DNA from: Candidatus Magasanikiibacteriota bacterium
GTDB lineage: Bacteria; Patescibacteriota; Patescibacteriia; Magasanikbacterales; GWA2-37-8
Length of the DNA stretch: 64,000 nucleotides
Assembly (NCBI GenBank): GCA_016182085.1
Contig: JACOYB010000006.1
Location: 88,980 to 152,979 of the forward strand
Direction: 5' to 3'
A program made the position numbers and the translations under genes. Below the pieces are notes generated by a model. It ran no database searches. It was not told where the DNA came from and saw nothing but the letters and a program-made list of their open reading frames with translations. Positions 2,394 through 63,545 of this stretch are shown one piece after another (position 1 is the stretch's first letter; each line of letters starts with the position of its first letter).

Positions 2394-3332
2394 TTAAACC
2401 TGCGCTATAACCAGACGATCAAGACCGGCCAGGTCTTTTTTAATTTTTACATTTGCTTTAGGCAAGAGTTTGTTTAGTATTTTTGTTATTGCCTCAGATT
2501 GAGACGGGTCAATTTCAAGAAATAGAAACATCTGGCAGGAATTGGGGAGCTTTCTTATTTGGTTTAGAAGTTTTATATAAAGATCCAAGCCGTTATATTG
2601 TGCGACCAGCGCGTTTTTCGGTTCGCGTTGAATTGATGGTTCTGATTTAAATTGAGCTGCGGTTAAATATGGCAGGTTGGCAGTGATTGTTACAAAACAC
2701 GGAGTGCCAAGCAGAAATGGATTTTTTAAAATTGGTTCTAAGAGATTGCCGTGTAGAAAATCTATATTAACTTTGTGCATCTTGGCATTTTTTTTTGCTA
2801 CTTTTAACGCCTTTTTGGAAATATCTGTGGCAAAAATTTGTATGTCATCCCGAACTTGTTTCGGGATCTCCCGGGATGCTGAAACAAGTTCAGCATGACA
2901 GGCGACAGAAATTGGTATGCAGCCACTGCCGGTGCCCACATCTATATATATGATATTGGTATTTTTAGTCTCCATTTCATGGCTAAGAACTTTTATAGCC
3001 TCATCCACCATTAGTTCGGTGTCCGGACGGGGGACAAGCACATGTTTGTTTACAAAAAAATCCAAGTTATAAAATTCTTTGTGGCCGATAATGGCGGCAA
3101 CTGAATAGCCTTTTTTATATAAAAAAATAGCATATCGCAAACGGATATGTTCAACTAAAGATAATTTATACTCTGGGTGAGAATAGAGAAACTCCTTTGG
3201 TTTTTTGATTGTGTCAGCTAACAGCAAGTCAAAATCTAGAGTTGGGAAAGTCTGGTATTTTTTACGCAAGTCGGAAATAGACATATTAATCGTCATCTTC
3301 GTCTTCGTTTCCGGCGTTATCAAATCCAGCAA
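2394..3332 (-). CDS. prmC: release factor glutamine N5-methyltransferase PrmC/HemK
   Basis: [11 protein letters not shown]-binding loop and NLPY (NPPY-type) substrate motif. Overlaps and follows prfA on the same strand, the conserved prfA-prmC operon arrangement. Confidence 0.8.
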
Positions 3333-4371
3333 ATTCAGCCGCGCGCACGGCGGTAATTATCGGTTCCAAAGCGCCATCCAAAATTTTGGGAATATTGTTC
3401 CAGTTTTGGCGAACGCGGTGGTCGGTAATGCGGTCTTGAGGAAAATTATAAGTGCGGATTTTTTCACTGCGGTCGCCGCTGCCGATTTGGGATCTGCGTT
3501 TTTCGGTAATAACTTTCATTTGCTCTTCGCGCTGGGCGGCGTAAATACGGGCGCGGAGCACAGTCATAGCCTTATCTTTGTTTGCAGTTTGCGAACGTTC
3601 GTCTTGGCACTGCACCATAATGCCGGTCGGAATATGGATAATACGCACCGCTGAATAGGTCGTGTTTACACTCTGTCCGCCCGCCCCGCCCGAACAGAAT
3701 GTGTCTATACGCAAATCTTTTGGTTCAATTTTAATTTCTGTTTCTTCAATTTCTGGAAGTACGGCTACAGTTACCGTAGAAGTATGAATACGTCCGGATT
3801 TTTCGGTATCAGGTACGCGCTGTACGCGGTGCACGCCCATTTCGTATTTCAGATCTTTGTATACATTTCTGCCTTTAATGGAGAAAATAACTTCTTTAAA
3901 GCCTCCAATACCAATACGATTAGCATCAAGCATCTGGGTTTTCCAGCCATGGGAGTCTGCATACCGGCTGTACATGCGGTAGAGTTCAGCGGTAAAAAGC
4001 GCGGACTCGTCGCCGCCCACGCCAGCCCGGATTTCCATAATCACATCTTTTTTATCAAATGGGTCTTGTGGACGCGTCATTTCTTCCAAAGTTTTTTCGA
4101 GGTCGGCTTTTTTTGTTTCCAAATCAGGCAATTCGGCTGCAGCCATTTCTTTGAGTTGCGGGTCGGTTTCGTTGTTTATAATATTTTGTGTTTCAGTTAA
4201 GCCTTTTTCAATCACAGCCAGTTCGTTTATTTTTTCCATGACCGGTTTTAATTCGGTGTATTCCTGAGATGTCTCTTTTATTTTTTTGGAATCATTAAGC
4301 ACGGCCGGATTTTGCAGATCAGCTTCCAGTTGTTTGAATTTTTGTTCTATCTCAAGATATTTTTTTTGCAT
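3286..4371 (-). CDS. prfA: peptide chain release factor 1
   Basis: GGQ motif ([12 protein letters not shown]) and RVQRVP-x-TE anticodon-like tripeptide region. Near full-length colinearity with bacterial RF1. Acidic C-terminal tail. Confidence 0.9.
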
Positions 4372-4846: not shown

Positions 4847-5054
4847 ATGAAATTAAGGTTTCATATATTTGCAGCTCGTTCGGAAAAGGTCGCAAGCAAC
4901 CTTTTCTCTCACTTCACTACAATTATAATTTAGCAAAAATGTTATTTAGTGCTAATATACTAGCATTATATTAAATAAATGTCAACCCCGCTAAGCGGGG
5001 TCAGCCGAGCGCATTATTCATATACAAAGGCTGTTTTTTAAACGAAATTCCACA

Positions 5055-5090
5055 GGTTGACAAACATGCCATTTTGTGGTATTATTTCTC
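5055..5090 (+). promoter_or_regulatory. sigma70-like promoter (TTGACA-17-TATTAT)
   Basis: Consensus -35 and near-consensus -10 with 17-nt spacer. Implies the downstream ORF starts at the internal ATG at 5120. Confidence 0.45.
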
Positions 5091-5119
5091 GTTATTTAAG
5101 ACAAATAATCTATAACTAT

Positions 5120-5515
5120 ATGTCAGAGATTGCCAGCGCTAGAGGTCAGATAGATGCACGACCAAAACGATCTAGCTTACCCAGCGCAGATCAGTTGCCG
5201 TCCATAATGATTGAGAAGGGTCTGGAAGCAGAAGAAAACGCTTTAAAACCAGCTCAAAGTGAAGTTGTGGGTGCAGAATCTGAAAGTGAAGATGAAGTTA
5301 TAAATAAAATGGCTAGTTTAGATGATGAGATAAAGAAAGTGATGGCTACCATTAAAACATATCAAAGTTTTACTAAAACACATGCTTCAAACCCAGATAT
5401 TATGGCTAAGCTAAATGAAGAAAGCAGGGTTTTTGCGGAAAAATATGACAATCTTTTGGCGCAACGGGAGGCTTTAAAATTGAAGCTGAGCAAATTGCGC
5501 GCCGCCAAAAACTAA
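5120..5515 (+). CDS. hypothetical acidic/coiled-coil protein
   Basis: ORF track gives 5057..5515. The promoter inside its 5' end argues for the ATG at 5120. No recognisable domain. Confidence 0.4.
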   Translation: MSEIASARGQIDARPKRSSLPSADQLPSIMIEKGLEAEENALKPAQSEVVGAESESEDEVINKMASLDDEIKKVMATIKTYQSFTKTHASNPDIMAKLNEESRVFAEKYDNLLAQREALKLKLSKLRAAKN

Positions 5516-5644
5516 AGCCATTACAGCTTGACTAATCTTCATTATTAATATATACTCCACCCATCTTAATTTATTCTCGCTAGCCAACTTTTTCCTCCCT
5601 TGGACCACTCCGGGGCAAGGCTAGGAGGCAATAATAAGGAAAAT

Positions 5645-6433
5645 ATGTCAAAGAAAATGCCAACATTGTTGGAAATGCTTAAGGCCGGCGTTCATTTCGG
5701 CCATCAAAAATCACGCTGGCACCCGAAGATGGAACAATTCATCTTTGGTGTTAGAAACGGCGTGCATATTATTGATCTGGAGAAAACTCAGGCTCAAATT
5801 GAGAAAGCTCTAGAATATGTAAGAAACTTGGCCGCAAAGGGTCATGTTATTTTATTTGTGGGCACCAAACGTCAGGCCAGAGAAGCTATTCGCGCCGCGG
5901 CTATGTCTTGCGAAATGCCGTATTTGGTAGAACGCTGGATCGGCGGGCTTTTAACCAACTTTGAAGAAGTAAAACGCCGTTTGAAAAAGTATAAAAACTT
6001 GAAAGAAATGTTTGCCAGCGGTGAAATTGAAAAGTATACCAAAAAAGAACAGGTAGTAATGAAAAAACAATTAGATAAATTGGATAAGTACTTAATCGGT
6101 TTGACTGCTTTGGAAAAATTACCGGATGCAGTATATATTGCCGACATGAGAACTGAAAAAACAGCGCTCGCCGAAACCGAACGCACCGAAGTGCCAACCG
6201 TAGCCGTTTGCGACACCAACACCAATCCAAATAAAGTTAACTATCCGATTCCAGCTAACGATGATGCGGTAAACTCAATTACCATGATCGCTGATTTAAT
6301 TGCCGCAGCTGTAAATGAAGGCAAGAAAGAATTTGAAAAGAAAAAACTTGAAAAAGCTAAAGAAGAACCGGTTGTAAAACAACACGTAGAAAAAATTGAG
6401 AGACGAGCCTTGAAAAAAGAGGAGTCAGTCTAG
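5645..6433 (+). CDS. rpsB: 30S ribosomal protein S2
   Basis: LKAGVHFGHQ..RWHPKM..IFG.RNGVHIIDL signature. AGGAGG lies ~15 nt upstream of the ATG at 5645 (ORF track start 5600 is probably too far upstream). Charged KE-rich C-terminal tail. Confidence 0.9.
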   Translation: MSKKMPTLLEMLKAGVHFGHQKSRWHPKMEQFIFGVRNGVHIIDLEKTQAQIEKALEYVRNLAAKGHVILFVGTKRQAREAIRAAAMSCEMPYLVERWIGGLLTNFEEVKRRLKKYKNLKEMFASGEIEKYTKKEQVVMKKQLDKLDKYLIGLTALEKLPDAVYIADMRTEKTALAETERTEVPTVAVCDTNTNPNKVNYPIPANDDAVNSITMIADLIAAAVNEGKKEFEKKKLEKAKEEPVVKQHVEKIERRALKKEESV

Positions 6434-6539
6434 CGCTTCTTCATTATTACCCCAAACTTGTTTTGGAAATTCTCTCGTAGTAAAATATAGATGCTGAAAA
6501 TTTGTTCAGCATGACAGGTTATTATTAAACAAAAATTAT

Positions 6540-7412
6540 ATGTCAATCACAGCCGCAGATGTAGCCAAGCTCCGAACACTTACTGGCGCCGGTATGATGG
6601 ATTGCAAAAAAGCTTTGGACGAAGCAAACGGTGATATGGAAAAAGCCGGAGAAATTTTGCGTAAAAAAGGAATTGTGAAAGCTGCTAAAAGAACAGATAA
6701 AATCGCAGCTGAAGGCACCACCCAGGTAAAAGTAAATGGCGACACAGCTGTAGTTTTGGAAGTAAACTCCGAAACTGATTTTGTGGCGCAAAATGAAGAC
6801 TTCAAAAAGATGGTAGAAAATTTTGCCGATGCGCTGCTTGAGCAAAAACCGCAAAGTTTGGAGGGAGCCATGGCAGTTACCGCTGGAGGTAAAACCCTTC
6901 AGGAGCACTTGAACGATCTAACCGCTAAGATCGGTGAAAAGATTTCTTTGCGCCGTTTCATGGTAGTAGAGAAAACAGCTGGGGATGTTTTTGGCGCCTA
7001 TTCACATTTGGGCGGCAGGATTTCAGTGTTAGTAGTGCTAAAAAATAGTACTCACGCCGGTTTGGCTGCAGATATCGCCATGCACGCGGCTGCTTCTAAT
7101 CCAAAATATATAAGTCGCGATCAAGTTCCGGCAGGTATCGTAGAAAAGGAAAAGGAAATTTATGTTGAGCAGCTTAAGCAGCAGGGTAAGCCCGAAGCTG
7201 CCATCCCTAATATTTTAAAAGGCAAGTTAGATAAGTTCTATAGTGAAATTTGTCTGATGGAGCAAGCTTTTATTAAAGATGAGGAAAAAACCGTGCAAAA
7301 GTTATTAGGCGAGAGTATGTCTGTAGCCACAATGGTTCGCTTTGAATTGGGTGAAGGAATAGAGAAGGAAAAGACAGATTTTGCCGCCGAAGTGGAAGCG
7401 CAGCTGAAATAA
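6540..7412 (+). CDS. tsf: elongation factor Ts
   Basis: N-terminal UBA-like AxxVKxLRxxTGAGMMDCKKAL motif. Conserved rpsB-tsf gene order. Confidence 0.9.
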   Translation: MSITAADVAKLRTLTGAGMMDCKKALDEANGDMEKAGEILRKKGIVKAAKRTDKIAAEGTTQVKVNGDTAVVLEVNSETDFVAQNEDFKKMVENFADALLEQKPQSLEGAMAVTAGGKTLQEHLNDLTAKIGEKISLRRFMVVEKTAGDVFGAYSHLGGRISVLVVLKNSTHAGLAADIAMHAAASNPKYISRDQVPAGIVEKEKEIYVEQLKQQGKPEAAIPNILKGKLDKFYSEICLMEQAFIKDEEKTVQKLLGESMSVATMVRFELGEGIEKEKTDFAAEVEAQLK

Positions 7413-7462: not shown

Positions 7463-7639
7463 TATTATTAGTTGAATTTAAGTTATCCACTGTTTTTATG
7501 TTGCAGAAGTTTTTTTTAAAAAAGTATGGTATACTAAAGCCAAATTAAATAACTTCTTCCAAAATGGCGCTTGTCACGTTTGTTATGGATTCTTAAAAGA
7601 AAAGGATTTTACCGATCCGGTTTTTTATTTTTTAAAAAT

Positions 7640-7751
7640 TAAAAACATTTAATTCAAACCACTCACTCATTTCGTATATACTAAGGTATATACTCATTCG
7701 TTCGGAACTAAATTAAAAACATTTAATTTAATTTACTCACTCATTTCGTAT
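7640..7751 (+). promoter_or_regulatory. tandemly duplicated hairpin+box leader element upstream of giant surface protein gene
   Basis: Two copies of AAAAACATTTAATT..ACTCACTCATTTCGTATAT. The second copy ends at the ATG. Copy 2 contains the hairpin AAATTAAA-aaca-TTTAATTT. Confidence 0.5.
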
Positions 7752-10700
7752 ATGGCGAAAAAAATTATCCAACATGTTTGGAAGAAAAAGATTGTCTATA
7801 TGCTGTCTGTTATGGCAGTGGCAGTAGGCGTAGGTTTTTATGCTTCTTTTTTTATAGGGAGAAGCGCAAGCGCCTTATCTGGCGTAACTTTAGCCGATAA
7901 TGATACTACCGGATTCGGGCTTGATGGCAGGGATTTTTCTATAACTTGGACTCCCGGTGATCAGCCTGCGGGATTTTTATATACCAAAATTTTTATTACC
8001 ACTAATACGGTTAATTTAACCACAAGCACAGCCGAAACTACCGCGTGCGCCGGATCCGCTTGTGTGCCGGTTGGCTATTTTAGCCAGTGGACTAATGCCG
8101 CCCATGTAGCACCTCAGTTTATGGGTACAGATAGTTCGGGTGTTGCCTGGAGAACCAGCACATCGTATGTAGCCTGGGTATTTGCTTCCACTACAGATCC
8201 AAATAATGCTTTATTAGTTTCCTCTACGGTTGTTTCTTATGCTAATACTTTTGATATTGTTTCTGATACAAGTAAACCGCAAATAGATCACAGCCCAGCG
8301 CATGTGGCGACAGCAAATAAAACCGCCTATTTTAATGCCTTTGTATTTGACGATCAGACTTCCGGCGCTAGTTTTGCCAGCACTTCTGTAGGTACAGAAT
8401 ATTTTAGACTGTTTTATACTTCCAGCACTAATCCGTGGTCATCTGTTAATTCCACTACCGGGCAGGCTTATTCCGGAGAATCAGATTTTTATAGTTTTCA
8501 AGTTCCTACCACTTCAATGGGCGCGGCTGGCGCAACATTCAAGTATTATTTAGTAGCCGCTGATGCGACCGGTAATACTCGTTATTTTTGCGCCAATCCA
8601 TCGGCAGCCAGCGCCACGGATTGTCAAAATAATCCCTTTACTCTTACTACCGTGTCAGCTGGATCAAGAACTGTGGGCGGTACTATCACCAGCGGCGGTT
8701 CCGCTTTAGGCAGCGCGTTTGTTTTTGCCGGCGGTTTTGCCAGCTCTTTGCCGGCAGTTCTTACCAATGGAAGTGGTGTTTATTCTCTTACGGCTTTGCC
8801 AAATAACGACGCTTTTGATATTGCCGCGCATAAGGTGGGTTATTGTCGCAGTATGCGTTTTGAAACTATTGGCACTACCGACAAAACCGGCGTGGATATG
8901 AGTTTGGGAAATAGCAGTTGTGGTTTTTATGATCCGGGTATGGGCGGAGGCGCGGGCGGCGCGCCGATGGTAATGTTTTCCGGACCTCCGGAAGGAATGC
9001 AAGGAGTGTCGGTTTCTGAAAGTATCCGTGTTGGTTTTAATCAGCCCATGGACGGAGCGACTATAAACGATACCAATGCCGCCGATAGTGGCAGTAATGT
9101 TTATTTAACTACCGATGATGGTACAACCAAAGTGGCCGGAACGGTAACTTACTGCGCCAGCAATGCTTCCGCCGGCTGTTCATCTTTGTTTTCAATGGAT
9201 AATAATACTATTTTATTTGTACCAAGCAGCACGCTTGCTTCCAGCACTTTTTATACGCTGGTTATTACCAGTGCGGTAAAAGGTCAGGGCGGTCAGTCGG
9301 TGCAAGGAAATGTTTCCGGTGGCGGCCATAAAATATCCTTTGGCACAAGCGGTGGCGCATTAAATATTGGTTCTTTTGGCACAAGCGGACAATTCATGCC
9401 TCCGTATGTAAAATCAATGACTCCGGCTCCAGGTATGACTGTAGGTGGTAACGTAAGTCTGACTGTAGAATTTAGCGAAGCTATGAGTTCGGCTTCAATT
9501 AATCAGACTAACGTCAGATTATTTAATATAACAAATGGGGCTAATACCGAAGTTACTTTGATTGGAAGTAATATTACTTTAGATTCTAACGAACGTCGTT
9601 TTGTAACCATTACTCACAGCGCGTTAAGCGCCGGGACTTACGAAGTCAGAGTTTTGGGTGCAGCAGCCAATGCCAGCGGTATAAGCATGCGTCCGCCCGC
9701 GAACGGTTCTGATATTGCTTTTAAGTCTTCCTTTATTGTGTCTGGTACTGATAACACTGTTCCAACTGTTTATCCTTCATTTGCTTCAGGGACAACTGGC
9801 ATGGCCGTAAATAATGTGTTTACCTTTGGTTTTAATGAACAGTTATTATTTAATACGGTTAATACTACGAATGTAACTTTATCTAGAGGAGCAACATCTG
9901 TGGGTGTCACCGTAAAATATGATTCCGGTTTAAATAATGTATTTGTTGTTCCAAACACCGCTTTGGTGCCAAATACAGTTTATACGTTGGTATTTAGTTC
10001 TTCCGTAACCGATGCGGCCAGCAATCGTTTGCCTACCAGTACCTATACCTATACAACCGGTGGCGGTGATACTGTAATTCCTATTCTTAAAGAAGCGCAA
10101 TGTGATGATTATACCTGTAAATTTTTCTTTACCGAACCAATGAATCACGCTTCACAAGTTGACGGTGCGACGTCTTGGGTGAGCAGCACTTTAAATCATT
10201 TAAGAATATCTCTAACTCAAGGCGGCGCAGATAAAATAGTTACTTCCACCGCCATGGCTTATGATTCAGTTAATTTTGTTATTACGGCCACCGGAGTCGG
10301 TTTAACACCTCTTAATGCAGGTGGCGCCAACTTTAGTGCAACTATTAGCGGCGTTGGAGATCTTTCCGGCAACGTAATGGCTTCTACCGTATTATCCGGG
10401 CCAGTTAAAGATAGTAAAGAAACTTTTGGTAATTTTGGCGGCGGTGGCATGTTTGCTCCTCCTACCACCGGATTCACCGGCGGCACAATTGGCGGTGGAG
10501 AATTCACACCAATGGGCTTTGGTTCCTTTACCGTTGATCAGTTTGCTTTTGGCCAGGCCGATATGGCGTTTCCCTTTAATTCAATGGCCAGCCAAGATGC
10601 GAATGTATTTCAAATAAAGTTTAACCCGGGAGTAGCTGTGGCCGCAGGAGATAAAGTAGTAATCACTTTTCCAGTTGGCACCGATGTTAATAGCGCTGGC

Positions 10701-13700
10701 CTTGATACATTCTCTCCTTTCTACGATGACTTTAATCAGTTTGCGGCAGGAATAGTAACTAGTACGGCGGTGGCAACAGATACCGTGTCTCGTAAAGTTA
10801 CCGTTACCTTGGGTGTTTCTGGTTCTCCCGCGCCTAATGATAGTTTAACCATTGATTTGCGCAAAATAATTAACCCAGCTATTCCAAAAGATCCTTCAAC
10901 TGGTGGTTATACAGTAACGATCCAACTTACAAATAATGCCGGAACTACTGTTAAGGCCAGTAAAACAAGCATGCCATACTTTATTATGGCCGGTGGTACC
11001 AATACTTTAAATGTACAAGTAGTTGCTGGTGTAAATACCAGCACCCCGACTGCTGGTGCCAATGGTACGGTATTCATGCACGGTGGCGGTCCGGCAGGCC
11101 CTATGGATAAAAGTATTACTCTTACCAACGGTGTGATATCAGCCATTGACGGAACATCCGCTACCGGTATTAATTTTACCAATCTACCCAACGGTTGTTA
11201 CTTCCTGGGTACAGATCCGTTTGTTACTTTAGGCACGTTAGATTACTTTGGTCAGATGTCGCCGGAACCAATTTGTCTAAACGGCAGTGTCTCCACCACT
11301 AAGTATATCTTGCTTTCCCCAGCCACTAGCGGTGGCGGTTCGGTAACGGCTACAATTAAATTTTCTGGCATTACCAACTTTAATGGCGCAGATATTGATA
11401 TTTTTGCCGGTGGTCCGGGAAGATTTGTGGTTAAAACTTTATCAGGAGTCACCACTACTTTAGCTGCCGGCTATGATATAAAATTACCTGCCAATGGCCA
11501 GTGGTTTATTGGTGTGGGGCCAGCTATGCCAAAGGGAGCTTCAGGAGGTAAGCCCGTATCCCTTCCTGGCGTGCCACCATCTCCTATAACGTTAGAAGTA
11601 AGTGGTTTAGGCGGTGGTACTCCGACTCTAAGTCGTCCGTCTTCAATGCCGCTCGCTTCAGGCGTGGCGTTTAATGATACTACGGATATAATTACTTTTA
11701 GTTTTGCCACGGCGGATAAAGTAGTTACCGGAACAGTTAAAGATGGTGCCGGAAATGTATTATCAAGCATTGAAGTCTTTATGCATAGACAAGGTTTTGG
11801 CGCGCCTGTATTTGGCATAACCAATGCTTCCGGTACATTTAATTTATCCGTATCCGATTATGGATTATATGAAATAGGCGTGTTCAAAGACGGAATGCCG
11901 CCTTCCTTCAAGCAATTGGAAGTTAAGACAGATGGATCTGATGCCGACAGCAATCCGGATATATTCTTGCAAGGTAAACAAATAACGGGTTCCAATCCTT
12001 TGGTTTTGACTCTGAAAAAAGCTAATTATACAATCTCAGGTAAAGTTTTGGATTCCAGTAATAGTGCGGTAAGCTATGCTCCGGTTTTTGCTTCGGATGG
12101 TTCCGGCAATAGTGTGTTCGGACAAACAGGGTCTGATGGTAGTTATTCAGTATTTGTGGATGCTGGTACTTGGACAATTAGAGCAGAACTTCCTCCAAGC
12201 AAGACAGGTGATACTTGCGGAACATTCTCAAAGACCGTAACAGTAACTACCGAAAGTCAGTCCAGCCAAAATATTACTCCATCAACCGCCACCTGTTACA
12301 CATTAAGCGGAAGCGTGACAGTTGGTTCTGTTAACTTAAGTAATACGCCTATCTTTATTGAGGAGTGGGATGACGGAAGTAACAAGCCGGTACAAGGTGG
12401 TATAAAAAGAGGAACAGTTACAGATTCAAATGGCGCTTATTCAGCAAAAGTTATAGGCAGTAAAACCTACCGTATCGGCACGGTTGATCCTACCTATGGA
12501 GAATTGAGCGCAACTAAAGGGGTGGTGTCATCTGATGCAACTCAAAATATTTCAGTTGCTTCAACAAGCACAGTTAGCTTCGTATTTACTGGTGGAACAG
12601 CTAGTATGAACGGATTTATTGAATTAAAGAATACAAGCGATAAAACAAAGCGCGTGACCAAGCAAGTGACTGGTTTAAATACTACCACCGCACTCACAGT
12701 AGAAGCCTCTGTTACGTACAATTATTTTGTGGATGTATTCGGTGTCGGGAGGTTTACCGGAGAAGTGGTAGCTGGTAATACAGCTACCGTAAATCTCGGT
12801 GTTTCAGCCAATGCATTTATTACGGTTACCGGAACTATTTATAGTAACGAAACCGTATCTTCTACAGTCTTAGCAGGAACACTGGTTACATTCTTTAGTT
12901 CCAGTACTGGCATAACGCAAACTGCCACAGCTAATGCTAGCGGTACGTATAGTATAAATATCAAGGCTGGTACATATGAGGTTTCCGCGGATATTGCCAA
13001 CTATCTTCCTGGCCAAGCAGCTCAAATAACATCCTTTACTACAACTACTCCGGCCTACGACTTTGGTGGCGCAAGTCCAGATCAAGGATCCTTAATTGCT
13101 TCCAACCGTACTATAGAAGGATATGTTAGTAGTTCCGCCGGTGCCACGATTACTGATGGCTATGCCTGGGCAACGAACGCTTCCGGCACAGTCGTAACTG
13201 CAGCCATAGATTCAACCGGACGCTATTCATTGCCTGTAACGGATGGCAGTTGGACAGTAGAAGCTGTAGCAGCCGGTGCGTCCGAGACTACCAAATCTGG
13301 TGCAGTAACTATTTCTGGTTCAGATTCAGCAAATAATAATTTTGCTTTAACAAACGATGGTAGTCGTATAGCTACGTCTACAAGTGGCATAGTAGCAGCC
13401 AGTTCCGGAGGATCGGTTAATGATACAACCGGTACAGGAATTAAGATTTCAGCCGGGCAGGGAGTTTTGGAAACCGGTTCAGGAGATGTCTCAATAAGTT
13501 TAGAAAAAACCTTTACCGCGCCAGATACTAGTGGTTTTGATGCGTTAGCTAATGCAACCTTTAAAATATCTGCAACCGGTGATTCTACAATTAAGGACCT
13601 AAATGGCAACGCCGAAATTCAATTGGATTATTCGGCGATGGTCAGTCAAATCCCAAGCGGAGTTGCCGAGGCTGATTTGAAATTAATGTACTATTCAGCG

Positions 13701-14528
13701 GAAAAAGGAGACTATGTGCCGGTAGAAGGCGGGTTTACAATTGATGCAACCAACAATACTATTACCGGACAGGTAAACCACCTTACCGATTTCGTAATTG
13801 CCTACGATCCTCCAGCAGCTGCAGCCGCAGCCGCAAGCACAGGCAGTTCCGGCACCGCTGCCGGCGGGATGGCTTCGCCTGTACCTGCCGCACAAGCCAC
13901 TACTAGCTCTGTAGTTGTAAATACTGTCACTACCACTGCTTCCACATTGCCAGTCACAAATAAAATAGATAGCTCTAAAGCTTATGGTTCGGCTCCATCC
14001 GTTTCGGTTAAGGTGTTATTTATTCATAACTTGGGAATGGGATCAAAAGGCGAAGAAGTCAGACAGTTGCAAGCTAAACTTAGAGAATTAGGCTTCTTCA
14101 AGCATCCAACCAACACTGGATTATTCGGGCCAGCTACCAAAGCTGCAGTGGTAGCATTCCAAAAGGCACGAGGATTAAAACCTTACCCGGGCACGCTCGG
14201 ACCTGCTACCAGAGCAGCGCTGAATAGTTTGACAGAACCAAGCGAATCTCTAGTAGTTCCGCCAGTATCAACAGACTCAAGTTTGTTGCCGGCAGGATCT
14301 ACGGCAGGAGTATTTGTCAGCGCTTTGAAGCTCGGCTCTAAAGGAGAAGAAGTCAGGCAGCTGCAAGCTAAACTTAGAGAGTTAGGTTTCTTCACTTATC
14401 CTAATGACACGGGGGTATTCGGACCAGCTACCAAAGCGGCAGTTGTAGCCTTCCAAAAGGCGCAGGGATTAAAACCTTATCCGGGCTGGGTTGGTCCAGG
14501 CACGCGCGCCGCGCTAAACAGTCTCTAA
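7752..14528 (+). CDS. giant (2258 aa) cell-surface protein: N-terminal signal anchor, many Ig-like/Big and carboxypeptidase-regulatory-like beta-sandwich repeats, poly-Ala/Thr linker, two C-terminal peptidoglycan-binding (PG_binding_1-like) domains
   Basis: One uninterrupted 6.8-kb ORF. Thr/Ser/Gly/Val-rich beta-strand periodicity. Two C-terminal copies of SKGEEVRQLQAKLRELGFF...G.FGPATKAAV.AFQKA.GL, the three-helix PG-binding fold motif. Confidence 0.8.
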   Translation: MAKKIIQHVWKKKIVYMLSVMAVAVGVGFYASFFIGRSASALSGVTLADNDTTGFGLDGRDFSITWTPGDQPAGFLYTKIFITTNTVNLTTSTAETTACAGSACVPVGYFSQWTNAAHVAPQFMGTDSSGVAWRTSTSYVAWVFASTTDPNNALLVSSTVVSYANTFDIVSDTSKPQIDHSPAHVATANKTAYFNAFVFDDQTSGASFASTSVGTEYFRLFYTSSTNPWSSVNSTTGQAYSGESDFYSFQVPTTSMGAAGATFKYYLVAADATGNTRYFCANPSAASATDCQNNPFTLTTVSAGSRTVGGTITSGGSALGSAFVFAGGFASSLPAVLTNGSGVYSLTALPNNDAFDIAAHKVGYCRSMRFETIGTTDKTGVDMSLGNSSCGFYDPGMGGGAGGAPMVMFSGPPEGMQGVSVSESIRVGFNQPMDGATINDTNAADSGSNVYLTTDDGTTKVAGTVTYCASNASAGCSSLFSMDNNTILFVPSSTLASSTFYTLVITSAVKGQGGQSVQGNVSGGGHKISFGTSGGALNIGSFGTSGQFMPPYVKSMTPAPGMTVGGNVSLTVEFSEAMSSASINQTNVRLFNITNGANTEVTLIGSNITLDSNERRFVTITHSALSAGTYEVRVLGAAANASGISMRPPANGSDIAFKSSFIVSGTDNTVPTVYPSFASGTTGMAVNNVFTFGFNEQLLFNTVNTTNVTLSRGATSVGVTVKYDSGLNNVFVVPNTALVPNTVYTLVFSSSVTDAASNRLPTSTYTYTTGGGDTVIPILKEAQCDDYTCKFFFTEPMNHASQVDGATSWVSSTLNHLRISLTQGGADKIVTSTAMAYDSVNFVITATGVGLTPLNAGGANFSATISGVGDLSGNVMASTVLSGPVKDSKETFGNFGGGGMFAPPTTGFTGGTIGGGEFTPMGFGSFTVDQFAFGQADMAFPFNSMASQDANVFQIKFNPGVAVAAGDKVVITFPVGTDVNSAGLDTFSPFYDDFNQFAAGIVTSTAVATDTVSRKVTVTLGVSGSPAPNDSLTIDLRKIINPAIPKDPSTGGYTVTIQLTNNAGTTVKASKTSMPYFIMAGGTNTLNVQVVAGVNTSTPTAGANGTVFMHGGGPAGPMDKSITLTNGVISAIDGTSATGINFTNLPNGCYFLGTDPFVTLGTLDYFGQMSPEPICLNGSVSTTKYILLSPATSGGGSVTATIKFSGITNFNGADIDIFAGGPGRFVVKTLSGVTTTLAAGYDIKLPANGQWFIGVGPAMPKGASGGKPVSLPGVPPSPITLEVSGLGGGTPTLSRPSSMPLASGVAFNDTTDIITFSFATADKVVTGTVKDGAGNVLSSIEVFMHRQGFGAPVFGITNASGTFNLSVSDYGLYEIGVFKDGMPPSFKQLEVKTDGSDADSNPDIFLQGKQITGSNPLVLTLKKANYTISGKVLDSSNSAVSYAPVFASDGSGNSVFGQTGSDGSYSVFVDAGTWTIRAELPPSKTGDTCGTFSKTVTVTTESQSSQNITPSTATCYTLSGSVTVGSVNLSNTPIFIEEWDDGSNKPVQGGIKRGTVTDSNGAYSAKVIGSKTYRIGTVDPTYGELSATKGVVSSDATQNISVASTSTVSFVFTGGTASMNGFIELKNTSDKTKRVTKQVTGLNTTTALTVEASVTYNYFVDVFGVGRFTGEVVAGNTATVNLGVSANAFITVTGTIYSNETVSSTVLAGTLVTFFSSSTGITQTATANASGTYSINIKAGTYEVSADIANYLPGQAAQITSFTTTTPAYDFGGASPDQGSLIASNRTIEGYVSSSAGATITDGYAWATNASGTVVTAAIDSTGRYSLPVTDGSWTVEAVAAGASETTKSGAVTISGSDSANNNFALTNDGSRIATSTSGIVAASSGGSVNDTTGTGIKISAGQGVLETGSGDVSISLEKTFTAPDTSGFDALANATFKISATGDSTIKDLNGNAEIQLDYSAMVSQIPSGVAEADLKLMYYSAEKGDYVPVEGGFTIDATNNTITGQVNHLTDFVIAYDPPAAAAAAASTGSSGTAAGGMASPVPAAQATTSSVVVNTVTTTASTLPVTNKIDSSKAYGSAPSVSVKVLFIHNLGMGSKGEEVRQLQAKLRELGFFKHPTNTGLFGPATKAAVVAFQKARGLKPYPGTLGPATRAALNSLTEPSESLVVPPVSTDSSLLPAGSTAGVFVSALKLGSKGEEVRQLQAKLRELGFFTYPNDTGVFGPATKAAVVAFQKAQGLKPYPGWVGPGTRAALNSL
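14011..14525 (+). repeat. tandem pair of PG-binding-domain coding modules (copy set 1)
   Basis: The 14080-14230 and 14361-14525 modules are highly similar to each other and to 16209-16360 and 16453-16619 at nucleotide level. Confidence 0.6.
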
Positions 14529-14584
14529 AATATTTTAACTTTTAAAAACCTGAGTTAAAATAGTTCAGCGCCAAGATTTAAAAA

Positions 14585-14615
14585 TATCCCGAACCGGTCG
14601 GGGTATTTTTATTTA
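14585..14615 (+). terminator. terminator hairpin after giant surface protein gene
   Basis: ATCCCGAACCGGTCGGGGTAT hairpin followed by TTTTTATTT. Confidence 0.5.
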
Positions 14616-14744
14616 TTGCAAAAATTATATTTTATAGGTAGTTATCCACAGCAAAAAATTAACGGACAAACCAGAGTGGTGTATAATATATTAAGAAAAT
14701 CTTATTTTTTAATTCCCTAGGTTTAACTAGGGTAAATTTAATTT

Positions 14745-16622
14745 ATGGAATTGTCTTCTCTGCAAAAAAAGATGAGCGCATCCAAAATGTTGGTGCTCGC
14801 TTTTTTAGTCGGACTTTTAAGTCTGATCCTTTTAGTTTTCAATGCCCAAGCTGCGCCAGTGGCGCCAACCGGCACTCCGACCACTACGGTTTTAACAGCA
14901 CAGACTATTATGATCGGCGGTATTACCAGCGGCGCTAGTGACAGCGGTTTAAACTGGTCTTTTGCCACTTCTTTAAATAATGTTACCAGAACAATTGTTA
15001 ATGTAACTACCCCTACCACCACAAAACAATTTACATTTACCGGTTTAGCTACCAACACATTATACTATTTGGCTGTAGCCTCAGGCGATGGCGCGGCCAC
15101 TTCCAGTTATGCTACTTCTTCGGCTGTTTATACCCTAGCTGATACTCCCGGTTCTCCAACTCTTTCCACTGCGGCTGTGCAGGGTTTTAAAGTAACAATT
15201 AATTCTTCCTCCAACCCTTCAAATACTACCTATATTGTTCGTGATACGGTATCCTCCACCCTTACCAAGTACTTGCAATCAGATCAGACATGGGGAAATG
15301 CAACGGCCACATTTACTTATGCCCAACTTGGAGGTTTAAGCGGTACGACTACTGCTGGTTTAGCTACAAATACTTTGCACAGAATTAGTGTCGCAGCGGT
15401 TAATGGCGACGCTGTTACTACCACGTATAGTTCTACAGTTGATTTTTATACCCTTGCCGCAACTCCCGGCACCGCCACAGTTACTTCCAGCGCGGTAACT
15501 ACATTAAATGTTACTGTCAATGCCGGCACTAATCCTACAACCGCTTCCACAACCTTTATAGTAAAAGATACCGGTTCAACATTGCTTTATCTTCAGTCCA
15601 ATGGAACTTGGGGTTCTGCTACGGCTACGCTTACTTATGCCCAACTTGGCTCAGGAAGCGCCACTACGACCACTGGTTTGACTGCCAATACTTTACACAC
15701 TATCAGTGTGGCTGCGGTCAATGGAGACAGTTCTGCTACTACCAGTTATAGCACTGTCGCCAGTTCTTACACGCTCGCCAACACTCCGTCTTCCGTATCT
15801 TTATCAGCGGCGGCAAATGGTTTTAACTTAACTTGGAGCGGGGATGCTACCCAATACTATGTAGAAGATGAAACTGCAGGCTCAAACTCCGGATGGATCA
15901 CCGCAACAACATATTCAGTGGGGGGTATTAATTGCGGAACTTCGCGCACCTTCCGAGTTAAAGGAAGAAATGGAGATACTACAGATACTGCGTTTGCCAC
16001 ATCTGTTAGCGCCACTACCAATGCTTGTGGAGGAGGTGTTGCGGTAGCTGTCCCTGCCACTCCGGCTACACCTGCCACGCCTGCTGTGCCCGGCGTTTCT
16101 CCCGCTGTCCCTGCCACCCCAGCTTCAGTTTCCTTACCGCCTACCGCTTCTCCGGTTGCCGTCTTTGTTCATACTTTGCGCGCAGGTACAAGAGGTGGGG
16201 AAGTTAAACAGCTACAACAAAAACTTAGAGAGTTAGGTTTCTTCAAATATTCTAGCAATACCGGCTTGTTTGGGGCTATTACCAAAGCCGCAGTCGTATC
16301 TTTCCAGAAAGATCAAGGACTAACTCCTTCCGGCGTAGTTGATGCAGCCACACGAGACGCTCTTAATGGAGTAAGCGCTACGGCCCCTCAAGCAGCTGTT
16401 GGTCAGTTTGTAAGTAGTCTCGCTGTTGGTTCCAGAGGCGAGGAAGTAAGAATGTTGCAAGCCAAATTACGAGAATTAGGCTACTTTACTTATCCAACCG
16501 ACACCGGTGTATTTGGCCCCGCTACCCGAGCCGCAGTACAAGCGTTTCAAAGAGCGCAAGGGCTGGCTCCATTTCCAGGATTTGTTGGTCCGGGCACGCG
16601 CGCCGCGTTAAACAATCTCTAA
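14745..16622 (+). CDS. secreted surface protein with four FN3-like ~110-aa repeats, Pro/Ala/Thr linker and two C-terminal PG-binding domains
   Basis: Signal peptide (MELSSLQKKMSASKMLVLAFLVGLLSLILLVFNAQA). Four YTLA.TPG...L..ISVAAVNGD repeats. (ATP)n linker. C-terminal anchor paralogous to that of the giant protein. Confidence 0.75.
   Translation: MELSSLQKKMSASKMLVLAFLVGLLSLILLVFNAQAAPVAPTGTPTTTVLTAQTIMIGGITSGASDSGLNWSFATSLNNVTRTIVNVTTPTTTKQFTFTGLATNTLYYLAVASGDGAATSSYATSSAVYTLADTPGSPTLSTAAVQGFKVTINSSSNPSNTTYIVRDTVSSTLTKYLQSDQTWGNATATFTYAQLGGLSGTTTAGLATNTLHRISVAAVNGDAVTTTYSSTVDFYTLAATPGTATVTSSAVTTLNVTVNAGTNPTTASTTFIVKDTGSTLLYLQSNGTWGSATATLTYAQLGSGSATTTTGLTANTLHTISVAAVNGDSSATTSYSTVASSYTLANTPSSVSLSAAANGFNLTWSGDATQYYVEDETAGSNSGWITATTYSVGGINCGTSRTFRVKGRNGDTTDTAFATSVSATTNACGGGVAVAVPATPATPATPAVPGVSPAVPATPASVSLPPTASPVAVFVHTLRAGTRGGEVKQLQQKLRELGFFKYSSNTGLFGAITKAAVVSFQKDQGLTPSGVVDAATRDALNGVSATAPQAAVGQFVSSLAVGSRGEEVRMLQAKLRELGYFTYPTDTGVFGPATRAAVQAFQRAQGLAPFPGFVGPGTRAALNNL
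16155..16619 (+). repeat. tandem pair of PG-binding-domain coding modules (copy set 2)
   Basis: Shares long identical nucleotide runs (e.g. AAACTTAGAGAGTTAGGTTTCTTCA, GGTCCNGGCACGCGCGCCGCG) with 14011-14525. Confidence 0.6.
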
Positions 16623-16690
16623 AATTCTACACTAAACAAACCAACACTCAGCCATTGTGCTGGGTGTTTTTGTCTGTTATACTCTTAAGC

Positions 16691-17953
16691 ATGACAAAAT
16701 TAACTGTTCACAAACAAAGAATCGGCCCTATTCTTGGCCGTCATCCTTGGGTATTTTCGGGTGCGCTTAAATTTATCCCAGAAGGATTAAAAAGCGGTGA
16801 TCCGGTAATGCTTTTAAATGAAGAAGGGGGTTTTTTGGCTCAAGGATATTTTAATTCTTATTCGCAAATAGCGGTACGGCTTTGGAGTTGGGACGAGCAA
16901 GAGGCGGTGGATGATAAGTTTTTTGAGAAAAGAATTAGCCAGGCATACCAGATAAGAAAAAATTTTGTTGAAAGCAAAAAGACGGATTCATATCGTTTGA
17001 TTTATAGTGAAAATGATTTATTGCCGGGGCTGATTGTAGATAAATATGCTGATTGTTTGGTTTTGCAGTTTCATACGCCTGGAATAGAGTTTTGGAAAGA
17101 CAAAATTGTAAAAGCTTTGGTAAAAATAGTGAAGCCCGACGGTATCTACGAAAGATCCGATGTTCGGGATCGTAAACGTTTTACCAATGTCATCCCGACC
17201 GAAGTGGAGGGATCCCTTAACCTAAACGAAAGGGGTTCTTTAGTAGAACCTCAGAATGACAGGCAGATAGATCGTGGTGGTGTGCTGTACGGCAAAGTAC
17301 CGGAACGCATAAAAATATCTGAAAATGGATACAAGTTTTGGGTGGACGTAATTGGCGGACAAAAAACCGGTTTCTTTTTGGATCAGCGAGACAAGCGACA
17401 GGCGCTTACAAGGTATGTGGATAAAAAGAGTGTCCTTAATTGTTTTTCTTATTCTGGTGGGTTTAGTGTCTATGCGCTTGGAGCCGGTGCCAAGCATGTA
17501 GTAAGCGTAGATGCCTCCGAAAGCGCGCTGGAACTGGCGGTAGAAAATGTAAAACTAAACAAAATGGATGTAAAAAAGTGTGAATTTGTTTGCGCAGACG
17601 TAAAGCAGTATTTGTTTAATGCGCAAGAAGAAAGAAAAAAGTTTGATGTGATAATTTTGGACCCGCCCGCCTTTGTAAAAGACAGGCACAAAGTAAAAGA
17701 AGGTTTAATGGGTTATAAAAAAATAAACGAAATGGCCTTGCGCGCTCTGGATTCCGAAGGGATTTTGGTTTCGGCTTCTTGTTCAGCTCATGTTACTCTG
17801 TCGGATTTTAGGTATATGCTATCTGAATCTGCCGGCCGATCTCGTCGTACTTTGCAGGTTTTGGAAACCTATACTCATGGCATAGACCACCCAGAATTGG
17901 TATCGTTTACCGAGGGAGAATATCTAAAATGCGTGTTTGCCAAAGTGGTTTAG
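16691..17953 (+). CDS. class I SAM-dependent rRNA (cytosine-C5) methyltransferase, RlmI/RlmK-like (PUA + MTase)
   Basis: N-terminal PUA-like region and C-terminal MTase with acidic-residue SAM motifs (ILDPPAF). ORF track start 16655 lies inside the upstream terminator, so ATG 16691 is preferred. Confidence 0.7.
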   Translation: MTKLTVHKQRIGPILGRHPWVFSGALKFIPEGLKSGDPVMLLNEEGGFLAQGYFNSYSQIAVRLWSWDEQEAVDDKFFEKRISQAYQIRKNFVESKKTDSYRLIYSENDLLPGLIVDKYADCLVLQFHTPGIEFWKDKIVKALVKIVKPDGIYERSDVRDRKRFTNVIPTEVEGSLNLNERGSLVEPQNDRQIDRGGVLYGKVPERIKISENGYKFWVDVIGGQKTGFFLDQRDKRQALTRYVDKKSVLNCFSYSGGFSVYALGAGAKHVVSVDASESALELAVENVKLNKMDVKKCEFVCADVKQYLFNAQEERKKFDVIILDPPAFVKDRHKVKEGLMGYKKINEMALRALDSEGILVSASCSAHVTLSDFRYMLSESAGRSRRTLQVLETYTHGIDHPELVSFTEGEYLKCVFAKVV

Positions 17954-17978
17954 TTAGGGTACAATTTTAGTTATAAGT

Positions 17979-18380
17979 ATGGATAAACAACGATTTTTCG
18001 TTCTTATTAAAAGAACAGCTTTGGTCGTTTCAATCGTAATTATTTTAGCTTGGGTGGCAGGGCTCATAGCCGTATTTATTGTTCGTAGTTTGGATAACAG
18101 TGAAATGAAACCAAGCAAAAATCATACGGTTGATTATGTTTCCCCAAATAGCCGTTATGCGGTTAGTACGCTGTATGATGAAAATAAATATCCGATTGAT
18201 ATTGTGGTAATAGATGCAAAAAGCGGTGTATCTGTGACAAAAATTACGCCGGAAGCAGAAATTGCGCGGTATGAAATTGCGGAAGCAAGTTCAACCATCA
18301 CCTTTACTTTGTATAATAATAAAAATAATCCAATAAAATTTTATTATTTTAATACTAAAAACGGAGAATGGATTAAATAA
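17979..18380 (+). CDS. hypothetical membrane-anchored protein
   Basis: 133-aa ORF with one N-terminal TM helix. No recognisable domain. Confidence 0.4.
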   Translation: MDKQRFFVLIKRTALVVSIVIILAWVAGLIAVFIVRSLDNSEMKPSKNHTVDYVSPNSRYAVSTLYDENKYPIDIVVIDAKSGVSVTKITPEAEIARYEIAEASSTITFTLYNNKNNPIKFYYFNTKNGEWIK

Positions 18381-18469
18381 TTTTATCTTTTTATATATAG
18401 GTTCCCATATATACTCACTCGCTGCGCCACCGCTGAAGCTTTAGCGGCACGCGGTCGGAAATAATTAAG

Positions 18470-18574
18470 TACATTTAATTATTTCTCTTACTCACTTCGC
18501 ATATATTTAAGATATATTTTCATTCACTCGGAAATAAATAAGCAAGCTCATTTATTTCCTCATTCATTTCAAAT
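18470..18574 (+). promoter_or_regulatory. hairpin+box leader element (two modules) upstream of gap
   Basis: Module 1 is GAAATAATTAA-gtacat-TTAATTATTTC (11-bp perfect hairpin) followed by TCTTACTCACTTCGCATATAT. Module 2 is GGAAATAAA..TTTATTTCC hairpin followed by TCATTCATTTCAAAT-ATG. Confidence 0.5.
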
Positions 18575-19570
18575 ATGAACATTGCTATAAATGGTTTTGG
18601 TAGAATAGGAAGACAAGCTTTTAAAGTCGCATTTGGCAGAAAAAAAATAAAAATTGTTGGCATCAATGATTTAACCGATACCAAAACCTTGGCCCATCTT
18701 TTAAAATATGACACTGCTTATGGAAAATATGGCAGTGAAGTGGATTTTGATGAAAAAAATTTAATTGTGGATGGCGAAAAAATTCCCGTGTTTGCGGAAA
18801 AAGATCCGAGCGTGTTGCCTTGGGAAAAATTAAAAGTAGATGTGGTTTTGGAGTGCACCGGCAGATTTACCAAAAAAGAAGATGCCGAGCTGCACCTCAA
18901 AGCCGGCGCTAAAAAAGTAGTAATTAGCGCTCCGGCCAAAGGCGGCGATGTACCAACCTATGTGCGCGCCGTAAATTGCGCCAAGTGCAACAAAGAAACT
19001 AGTACCGTAATAAATAACGCCTCCTGCACCACCAACAGCATTGGTCCGGTGATGGCCGTGCTTAATGAAACATTTGGTATAGAAAAAGCGATGATGACTA
19101 CCGCTCACGGCTATACTGCCGATCAGAATTTACAAGACGGCCCACACAAAGATTTACGTCGTGCTAGAGCTGCGGCCGAAAATATTGTGCCTACCACCAC
19201 CGGAGCGGCTATTGCCGTTACCGAAGTTATTCCTGGACTGGCCAATGTATTTGATGGGTTGGCTTTGCGTGTGCCAGTACCAACGGTTTCTGTATCAGAC
19301 ATGACGGTTTTGCTAAAGAAAAATGTTACTAAAGAAGAAATAAATCAAGCAATGATAGATGCTAGTAAGACAGGCAGATTTGCTGGCGTTTTAACCACTA
19401 CTACCGAACAATTAGTATCATCCGATTTTATCGGCAATACCCACTCTGCCATTGTGGATTTAAGCCTTACCAATGTAGTGGGTGGAAATTTGGTAAAAGT
19501 TGTATCTTGGTATGACAATGAAACCGGTTATGCGAATAGATTGGTGGAGATAGCGGAATTGTATGTTTAA
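18575..19570 (+). CDS. gap: type I glyceraldehyde-3-phosphate dehydrogenase
   Basis: NGFGRIGR Rossmann motif and ASCTTNS active-site cysteine. Confidence 0.9.
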   Translation: MNIAINGFGRIGRQAFKVAFGRKKIKIVGINDLTDTKTLAHLLKYDTAYGKYGSEVDFDEKNLIVDGEKIPVFAEKDPSVLPWEKLKVDVVLECTGRFTKKEDAELHLKAGAKKVVISAPAKGGDVPTYVRAVNCAKCNKETSTVINNASCTTNSIGPVMAVLNETFGIEKAMMTTAHGYTADQNLQDGPHKDLRRARAAAENIVPTTTGAAIAVTEVIPGLANVFDGLALRVPVPTVSVSDMTVLLKKNVTKEEINQAMIDASKTGRFAGVLTTTTEQLVSSDFIGNTHSAIVDLSLTNVVGGNLVKVVSWYDNETGYANRLVEIAELYV

Positions 19571-21656: not shown

Positions 21657-21766
21657 GTTGTCATCCCGAGCGGACTCGCCTAGGCGAGGGAGTCGAGGGA
21701 TCCCTTACACTTGGGTATTGCAAGTATGATATTTAAGGGATTCCTCCACTTCGGTCGGAATGACAG
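21657..21766. repeat. GC-rich palindrome-dense intergenic element with TGTCATCCCGA / TCGGAATGACA inverted ends
   Basis: Contains CTCGCCTAGGCGAG (14-nt perfect palindrome) and GGGATCCC. Its ends are inverted copies, and the left end matches 2843-2855. Confidence 0.45.
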
Positions 21767-37142: not shown

Positions 37143-37200
37143 GGAGTAGGGCGTAAGAAGTAAGGAGTAGTGAGTAGAGAAAATTTATCCTTTTTGTGGT

Positions 37201-37292
37201 TCCTCCCCCTATAAGGGGGAGGATAAAGGAGGGGGTTTAAAGACAATAAAAATAAAACCCCACCCTCTGTCCCTCCCCTTATAGGGGAGGGA
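37201..37292. repeat. compound inverted repeat: two ~38-nt arms, each with an internal 9-bp G/C hairpin (TCCTCCCCC-tataa-GGGGGAGGA; TCCCTCCCC-ttata-GGGGAGGGA)
   Basis: The arms are ~85% identical in inverted orientation and separated by AAAGACAATAAAAAT. Preceded by a purine-rich (AGTAG)n tract at 37143-37180. Confidence 0.5.
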
Positions 37293-37331
37293 GCCACCTA
37301 CTAGTAGTCGTGGCAATGACGAATAAAAATT

Positions 37332-63462: not shown

Positions 63463-63486
63463 TTTTATATATAGGTAAACCATATA

Positions 63487-63545
63487 TTCTCATTCACTCG
63501 GAAATAATCAAAAACATTTGATTATTTCTCTCATTCATTTCGAAT
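63487..63545 (+). promoter_or_regulatory. hairpin+box leader element upstream of tlpA-like gene
   Basis: TTCTCATTCACTCG + GAAATAATCAAA-aaca-TTTGATTATTTC (12-bp perfect hairpin) + TCTCATTCATTTCGAAT-ATG. Confidence 0.5.

Follow-up and report, generated by a model that had tools for sequence, protein, structure and literature searches.

The window analysed here is the whole of a 64,000 nt stretch of contig JACOYB010000006.1 (assembly GCA_016182085.1, positions 88,980 to 152,979 of the forward strand) from a Candidatus Magasanikbacteria genome. Near one end lies prmC, the gene for the methyltransferase that modifies release factors, directly downstream of prfA (3286-4371); its product is 100% identical to the database protein P0001. 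Within prmC there is a short palindromic element, here called E1, and related elements are present further along the window: E2 in an rlmI-like gene, E3 in a spacer between genes, and a solo hairpin between rpsB and tsf (Table 1). An earlier note, made from the letters of the DNA, had reported a palindromic segment in frame in prmC at 2843-2902. The exact 60 nt string was confirmed there, together with its palindrome and hairpins, and no other match to it occurs in the window at up to three mismatches.

E1 is a single imperfect palindrome with two arms of 26 nt (2843-2868 and 2875-2900), which are 85% complementary, and each arm also folds on itself as a separate hairpin with an 8 bp stem and a 5 nt loop. 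All seven arms of this type in the window begin with a (T)GTC tag, followed by a palindrome starting with AT and then by a C. Folded as RNA, E1 has a predicted energy of -29.9 kcal/mol (z = -4.3), and none of 200 shuffles folds as well. A structural scan recovered the left unit of E1, with three matches in the window against 0.14 expected.

In the prmC frame, E1 is free of stop codons and encodes 19 residues, PrmC 129-147. These lie between the helix that follows the GTGSG (GxGxG) motif and the beta2 strand IQIFATD, the position between the GxGxG loop and the acidic beta2 residue to which the earlier note had assigned the insert. The Thermotoga HemK structures (1sg9/1nv8) align on both sides and leave a 15-residue gap exactly at the insert; the HemK strand beyond the gap, FATD, ends in the acidic beta2 residue. 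An AlphaFold2 model of PrmC (mean predicted local distance difference test score, pLDDT, 88.7) has a coil at residues 131-147, between a helix (122-130) and a strand (148-154), with pLDDT below 50 at residues 135-142. The earlier note had proposed looking for the insert on the surface of a structure model, and it is there that the model places it, as a low-confidence coil. E1 is probably translated, adding to the surface of PrmC a disordered loop that the enzyme can tolerate.

The closest orthologue, P0002 (89% amino acid identity, locus L001), lacks E1 and is 13 residues shorter at that point, and other close orthologues are also without the insert, an outcome in favour of the earlier proposal. 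At the DNA level the 58 nt of E1 and a further 11 nt stand in the window against 30 nt in L001, so that the window has gained a net 39 nt, and comparison of the two reveals no target-site duplication. A sliding identity profile across prfA, prmC and the DUF3048 gene shows 95-100% identity between the window and L001 except in two patches. One of these contains E1; it starts a few tens of nucleotides 5' of the element and extends about 190 nt 3' of it. Alignment with L001 shows many synonymous differences within the patch, which is therefore read as an imported tract and not as the product of local adaptation. In this segment P0003-P0005, which are the next outgroups, have no element and resemble L001, so that the simpler reading is gain of the filled allele by the window lineage; loss in the relative by recombination is less parsimonious. 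E1 thus seems to have come into this lineage when a divergent allele in which it was already present recombined homologously, and not through fresh insertion. The earlier proposal of a family of miniature palindromes, like the palindromic elements (RPEs) of Rickettsia, that can land in frame is supported. As a refinement, the difference between filled and empty alleles at this site falls within a recombination patch and not at a clean fresh insertion. Patescibacteria are reported to be competent and to have kept recombination genes (PMC12455944).

The second divergent patch, in prfA at approximately 3810-4190 (64-88% identity to L001), has no hairpin element. Elsewhere the window and L001 are only 85-90% identical, and the genomes are therefore mosaic. 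In another relative, L004, prmC (4959-5811) and prfA (5816-6899) are each split into two open reading frames (ORFs). A disruptive element was considered for the split of L004 prmC and rejected; the frameshift comes from an extra A in a run of As and is probably an assembly error.

In two more distant orthologues, L005 and L006, an E1-type element occupies exactly the junction that E1 has in prmC. Identity is 86-90% between these elements and E1, against 62-66% for the gene around them, so that the element is better conserved than its surroundings, and the L005 element has a compensatory C-G to T-A change in its stem. In L007 a different interior, with an E3-type right arm, lies between the same junctions.

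Related elements and recurrently filled loops

The right half of E1 had been said to recur in the rpsB-tsf spacer, and the solo tagged hairpin is found there; L001 conserves it at the corresponding position, apart from a single tag change. A GC-rich element of 110 nt, bracketed by inverted ends, had also been placed at 21657-21766. The bracketed element exists (E3), with a measured length of 107 nt and correspondingly narrower limits. The left bracket of E3, TGTCATCCCGA, occurs four times at up to one mismatch, against 0.42 expected, and no shuffle reaches four. E3 is a dimer with its tags outward, like E1; the left unit reads TGTCATCCCGAGCGG...GAGGGATC and the right unit, on the minus strand, TGTCATTCCGACCGAAGTGGAGGAATC. 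It is missing in L002 and L004, where the spacers measure 9 and 3 nt.

The in-frame copy in the rlmI-like gene, E2, was missed by the earlier note. Its host protein, which is 100% identical to P0121, has 420 aa against a modal length of 394 aa, and the four closest orthologues (88-92% identity) lack the insert. The right arm of E3 is 94% complementary to the left arm of E2, and the arms of both elements form longer stems interrupted by GA/AG mismatches. Comparison with relatives reveals no target-site duplication at either. Three of the six reading frames through E1 are free of stops, as is only the frame in use in E2 and none of the six in the intergenic E3. Such a pattern, with the frame in use open in both genic copies and stops in every frame of E3, fits selection on the translated copies; the genic copies may be those that remained after selection had favoured open frames in permissive loops. 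A further match, TGTCATTCCGG at 62724, falls in the N-terminus of a DsbD/CcdA-type membrane protein and was dismissed as chance.

Table 1. Positions of the hairpin elements, their parts and their host genes in the window
Feature	Position	Strand	Length	Description
prmC	2394-3284	minus	296 aa from ATG	Release-factor glutamine methyltransferase; Pfam MTS and PrmC_N, HemK alignment
Divergent patch containing E1	~2675-2940	minus	~260 nt	64-84% identity to L001; flanks 95-100%
E1	2843-2900		58 nt	Dimer of tagged hairpins, tags outward, in frame in prmC
E1 left unit	2843-2868	plus		Tag TGTC 2843-2846; palindrome ATCCCGAA-CTTGT-TTCGGGAT 2847-2867; C at 2868
E1 spacer	2869-2874		6 nt	TCCCGG; position of the ~0.3 kb GIY-YIG gene in autonomous cassettes (compare L082, L032, L103)
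E1 right unit	2875-2900	minus		TGTC-ATGCTGAA-CTTGT-TTCAGCAT-C
Solo tagged hairpin	6490-6517	minus		rpsB-tsf spacer; TGTC-ATGCTGAA...TTCAGCAT-C
rlmI-like gene	16694-17953	plus		PUA and S-adenosylmethionine (SAM)-dependent rRNA methyltransferase, host of E2; Pfam PUA_3, Methyltrans_SAM
E2	17188-17261	plus	74 nt	Tagged element in frame in the rlmI-like gene; encodes VIPTEVEGSLNLNERGSLVEPQND
E3	21659-21765		107 nt	Between asnS/lysS-type aminoacyl-tRNA synthetase gene and scpA; bracketed by TGTCATCCCGA and TCGGAATGACA

Comparison of orthologues reveals that the same loops are filled repeatedly. Inserts are present in the E1 loop of PrmC in 9 of 33 aligned orthologues; their interiors differ, and they share the end signatures CH.E...(R/Q)ND. 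Some other PrmC orthologues carry such inserts at other sites. In a number of orthologues, P0048, P0052 and P0111 among them, the PrmC junction lies about four codons further on, and the loop has therefore been struck more than once. In RlmI, at least 15 of the 28 aligned orthologues have an insert in the loop that follows ERSDVR, and in four a second loop contains E1-type sequence (VIPNSFRDP...MPKQVRHD). Signature peptides were matched in 10 of 120 PrmC orthologues and in 14 of 120 RlmI orthologues, where shuffled proteins give expectations of 1.45 and 2.8; all 14 of the RlmI matches, and 8 of the 10 in PrmC, fall at the same loop.

RlmI alleles with the first loop filled share a left flank, DRKR(x), the codons of which differ between the window (17150-17187) and L004. 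Empty RlmI alleles read TRGIEGAEKQ, and filled alleles have also replaced about 10 native residues; close RlmI relatives do not all belong to one class. At the DVKQYL loop (the second loop) of RlmI, P0145, P0155, P0165 and P0168 have in-frame inserts of a third kind, NNPDLNPAFSSKEKEPQDPLLRGEGRVRSG.

A different palindrome, of 102 nt, lies between two ORFs at 37196-37297, with 43 nt arms that are 79% complementary and rich in GGGGGAGG/CCTCCCC. Sequence of this type is present in frame in L006 prmC, and peptides such as PLIGGGTESVLTIISPSTTRGGARGG occur in the PrmC orthologues P0010, P0018 and P0082. Landing in coding loops is therefore shared by a second repeat family, unrelated to the first.

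Distribution and association with GIY-YIG genes

A 25-mer from the right arm of E1, ATYCCGARACAAGTTCGGRATGACA, was used as the query in a scan of species-representative genomes. It is present in at least 120 genome stretches (128 copies), where chance would give far fewer than one. The hosts include Treponema (cultured isolates among them), Melainabacteria, Bacteroidota, Ignavibacteria and several lineages of the Candidate Phyla Radiation (CPR), and further copies were found in Proteobacteria, Nitrospirae, Firmicutes and Actinobacteria. The E2/E3-type hairpin was found in at least 120 metagenome loci. The earlier note had called for a search for additional copies, and these exist in the window as well as in hundreds of stretches from other genomes and metagenomes. 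Viral contigs (2 matches) and plasmids (3 records) rarely contain the 25-mer, so that there is no obvious vector for spread across phyla. Repeats of 90-200 nt within genomes include the hairpin module.

Of the 128 copies of the 25-mer, 67 have a partner hairpin at a distance of 5-67 nt upstream, giving a gene-less dimer. The commonest partner has the ATGCTGAA stem (38-42 of about 68 partners, depending on the scan). In an unbiased scan, which accepted any GTCA upstream of the 25-mer, 114 candidates were obtained, 64 of which form all eight pairs in an 8-5-8 register. The 68 partner candidates that fold in this register are tagged TGTC in 50 cases and CGTC in 11, and a C follows the palindrome in all except one. 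Their stems covary with full compensation, position 2 being T-A or C-G and position 3 G-C, C-G or T-A.

Clustering of the ORFs in the approximately 780 kb around these 128 copies identified a small GIY-YIG gene as the only recurrent neighbour. In L082 (Gastranaerophilales), TGTCATCCCGAACTTGTTTCGGGATC is followed by 35 nt, a GIY-YIG ORF of about 96 aa, 24 nt and GATGCTGAAACAAGTTCAGCATGACA; both hairpins are identical to the E1 arms, the left one over 26 of 26 positions. L032, L103 and L013 have a similar arrangement, with the GIY-YIG gene between or beside the hairpins. The flanked genes encode single-domain proteins of about 90-110 aa in which GIY-YIG is the only Pfam match. Four of the five GIY-YIG matches among the 25-mer loci are within about 35 nt of a hairpin, and in four of the E2/E3-type loci GIY-YIG genes lie 30-54 nt away. 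L226 contains a full hairpin-gene-hairpin unit of the E2/E3 type with the tags outward, and L235 and L175 also have flanked genes of this type.

Beside some GIY-YIG cassettes, in L103 (approximately 7150-7250, minus-strand view) and L235 (11900-12400), half-units (ATCCTGAAAYA..., CGAAATGACAGTAG...) are repeated in short tandem arrays within which the hairpins lie, and the motif seems to have been amplified locally.

Relation to known systems and alternative explanations

Two described systems share these features. Chenal et al. (2025; Nat Commun 16:2388; PMC11893778) reported that SsnA of Neisseria meningitidis, a 94 aa single-domain GIY-YIG protein, binds the NTS hairpin (CGTCATTCCCGCGMAVGCGGGAATCYRG) solely as single-stranded DNA and not as RNA, and cuts a few nucleotides upstream; the C after the palindrome is a critical base for binding. 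Homologues of ssnA across phyla are flanked by such motifs, the NTS-ssnA-NTS unit resembling an insertion sequence (IS), and Ssn-related motifs (SRMs) also exist as hundreds of gene-less copies. The Ssn system modulates transformation, and Neisseria genes beside dRS3 show raised divergence and recombination (PMC11893778). Repetitive extragenic palindromes (REPs) with an unpaired CGTC tag, which is often TGTC and can be CCTC, were described by Di Nocera, De Gregorio & Rocco (2013; BMC Genomics 14:522; PMC3733652). They have 8-9 bp stems starting with AT and loops of 4-5 nt, are mostly arranged as dimers in opposite orientation and include intragenic copies. The family is reported in five phyla, mostly in Alphaproteobacteria, and the superfamily takes in Neisseria dRS3 and RPE-4 and RPE-6 of Rickettsia conorii; many REPs are considered to be transcribed, and no transposase, including tyrosine transposase, was found associated with the CGTC group (PMC3733652).

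The arms of E1, E2, E3 and the solo hairpin all start with TGTC, and E1, E3 and the 67 pairs elsewhere are dimers whose units face in opposite directions, as in most CGTC-tagged REPs. The arms of E1 also agree with these REPs in stem and loop, while E2 and E3, with their longer interrupted stems, are less clear. The CCA 3' tail of the REPs is absent: the tails in the window are CTCC, CCCG and CTAT, in which the first C alone is constant. Compared with the five phyla reported for the REPs, the host here belongs to the Patescibacteria (Ca. Magasanikbacteria), and the exact arm is present in Spirochaetes, Melainabacteria, Bacteroidota and others. The arrangement of the SRM, a hairpin after (C/T)GTCAT and then a C, is seen in every arm of the window. 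Hairpins on either side of a single-domain GIY-YIG gene, as in NTS-ssnA-NTS, are found in other genomes and not in the window. The main text of the Ssn paper makes no mention of intragenic or in-frame copies or of Patescibacteria (PMC11893778).

The same two hairpins flank a GIY-YIG gene elsewhere, and E1 can therefore be regarded as a miniature of such a cassette, with 6 nt in the place of the gene. We consider it likely that E1 is a gene-less dimer of TGTC-tagged, REP-type hairpins, the two ends of a GIY-YIG nuclease cassette without its gene, tolerated in a PrmC loop. A cognate Ssn-like nuclease would bind the hairpins as single-stranded DNA, and across phyla this binding would hold constant the tag and stem as well as the C that comes next. 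Movement to new sites could proceed by structure-specific cleavage immediately external to each tag and subsequent repair by the host, which would fit the absence of target-site duplications and the ragged junctions.

Several results weigh against this interpretation. The published SRM string, HGTCWYN(0-2)YYVSBRHN(0-5)WNVSBRGN(0-2)RNCYNB, which was built from 29 genomes of four phyla (PMC11893778), has no match on either strand of the window, and the regular expression as used does match the NTS consensus. Since both this string and the CCA tail fail, the elements are assigned to the TGTC-tagged REP/Ssn type by anatomy and association and not as formal SRMs. Neither the window nor about 110 kb of sequence from related Magasanikbacteria yielded a GIY-YIG gene, and the flanked GIY-YIG proteins match neither the PDB nor a specific NCBIfam model. 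A protein search with the L082 GIY-YIG protein returned close gut relatives only and is uninformative on Magasanikbacteria. There is no clean pair of empty and filled sites for E1, E2 or E3, each filled site lacking some native bases, and we infer transposition solely from the dispersed related copies. The donor of the prmC patch was not found among L005-L007; L001 is still the closest to the patch, at 73%.

One alternative is that E1 is a REPIN, a mobile unit formed by a REP doublet. In a REPIN the REPs of an inverted pair are moved by a REP-associated tyrosine (HUH/Y1) transposase (RAYT), and E1, an inverted hairpin doublet in which each hairpin has a conserved 5' tetranucleotide, has the REPIN layout (compare PMC3337134). 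The doublet as a non-autonomous unit and a single-copy gene flanked by the same hairpins are features common to E1 and the REPIN/RAYT system. The tag, however, is TGTC or CGTC and not GTAG, no tyrosine transposase is associated with CGTC REPs (PMC3733652), and the gene that the hairpins flank, the sole recurrent hairpin-adjacent gene in the 780 kb surveyed, encodes a GIY-YIG nuclease and not an HUH/Y1 transposase; a REPIN is very improbable. A conventional MITE (a miniature transposable element bounded by inverted repeats), derived from an IS with a DDE transposase and TGTCAT...ATGACA terminal inverted repeats, would account for the small size, the inverted TG...CA termini and the module within the 90-200 nt repeats. 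Neither of the marks of a DDE-type MITE was seen: E1, E2 and E3 have no target-site duplication, and there is no kilobase-sized repeat, transposase or parent IS sharing their ends, which belong instead to self-folding hairpins with covarying stems. We attach an extremely low probability to this origin.

The hairpins might also be kept for a role as RNA (in mRNA stability, pausing or termination, or as a segment of prmC that is skipped or removed) and not as selfish DNA bound by a nuclease. The strong predicted RNA fold of E1, the compensatory stem changes, the intergenic copies downstream of genes (rpsB, asnS) and the view that many REPs are transcribed (PMC3733652) would all suit such a role. 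Set against it are the distribution of open frames, which is that expected if the genic copies are translated, the occurrence of the tagged unit on both strands, and the fact that the NTS as RNA is not bound by SsnA (PMC11893778). No Rfam family matches the elements: at the gathering threshold a single tRNA is the only match in the window, and at E <= 1 E1 has only matches to miRNA hairpins that lie far below threshold and were taken as chance, and E3 has none. An RNA role is accordingly judged improbable. A hammerhead or other ribozyme was dropped on inspection by eye, the spacer being variable and the CUGAUGA/GAAA core absent. Finally, the length of the loop between helix aA and beta2 varies among PrmC orthologues, and the extra residues could be an ordinary lineage-specific expansion with a coincidental palindrome. 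This has a negligible chance of being correct, as the closest orthologue lacks the residues, the DNA of E1 recurs at non-homologous sites and across phyla, and its fold departs so far from that of shuffled sequence.

The proposed relation of E1 to a GIY-YIG cassette also bears on the in-frame palindromes of Rickettsia. E1 resembles these in being in frame, stop-free, absent from orthologues and located in a surface segment of a conserved protein. Ogata et al. are said to have described RPE-1, in 2000, as short palindromes in frame in conserved housekeeping genes, at surface segments and in a manner compatible with function. RPE-1 is longer (100-150 nt) and, by its description, belongs to a sequence family distinct from that of E1. 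The link between E1 and the RPEs may nevertheless exceed analogy, given the classification that places RPE-4 and RPE-6 in the CGTC superfamily (PMC3733652). Our results point to the GIY-YIG cassette as the partner that in-frame palindromes have long lacked, and they extend the CGTC-tagged REPs and Rickettsia-type palindromes, as well as the Ssn nuclease and its motifs, to the CPR. Literature searches for the element sequences and for in-frame palindromic elements in the CPR found nothing relevant. E1, in a CPR genome and in frame at a recurrent loop of an essential gene, is a new instance of such elements and not a new kind. Essential genes of very small genomes bear inserts at recurrent loops. 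Annotation of CPR proteins can take these inserts as the reason for variable lengths and weak domain scores, and the peptide signatures CH.E.../...RDD and VIP.../...GMT flag segments derived from repeats.

A bolder and rather unlikely extension is that the hairpin dimers and an Ssn-type nuclease act as a homing-like system in naturally competent Patescibacteria. Cleavage beside hairpins in incoming or replicating single-stranded DNA would set the end-points of recombination and convert empty alleles to filled ones. If so, the same loops (the aA-beta2 loop of PrmC and the two RlmI loops) would be refilled repeatedly, with interiors swapped at fixed junctions, and the Ssn system would be a general generator of loop insertions and mosaic alleles in reduced genomes.

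Further repeats, duplications and an intein

A conserved motif of about 50 nt (TCGGAAATAAT-hairpin-ATTATTTC-TCTCAYTCAYTTCGNATATG) is present in the window at 7636-7754, 18439-18577 and 63482-63548, and inverted at 57914-57991 and 4859-4918/57997-58056. At two ORFs or more its end coincides with the start codon: that of the giant protein (7752) and that at 18575, the latter being the gene for glyceraldehyde-3-phosphate dehydrogenase by synteny with L002. The motif may be a shared promoter or leader element. Four diverged copies of a 166-189 nt repeat (67-79% identity) lie at 14019-16616; they are common to the C-terminal part of the 2258 aa ORF (7752-14528) and the next ORF (14745-16622), which has no counterpart in L002.

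The adjacent ORFs at 28047-29603 (518 aa) and 29624-31201 (525 aa) share stretches that are 74% identical; their appearance is that of a phosphoglycerate mutase (iPGM) gene, single in L002, that has been duplicated in tandem. In the Magasanikbacteria relative L005, gyrB (15396-18839, 1147 aa) carries an intein, with a Pfam match to Intein_splicing.

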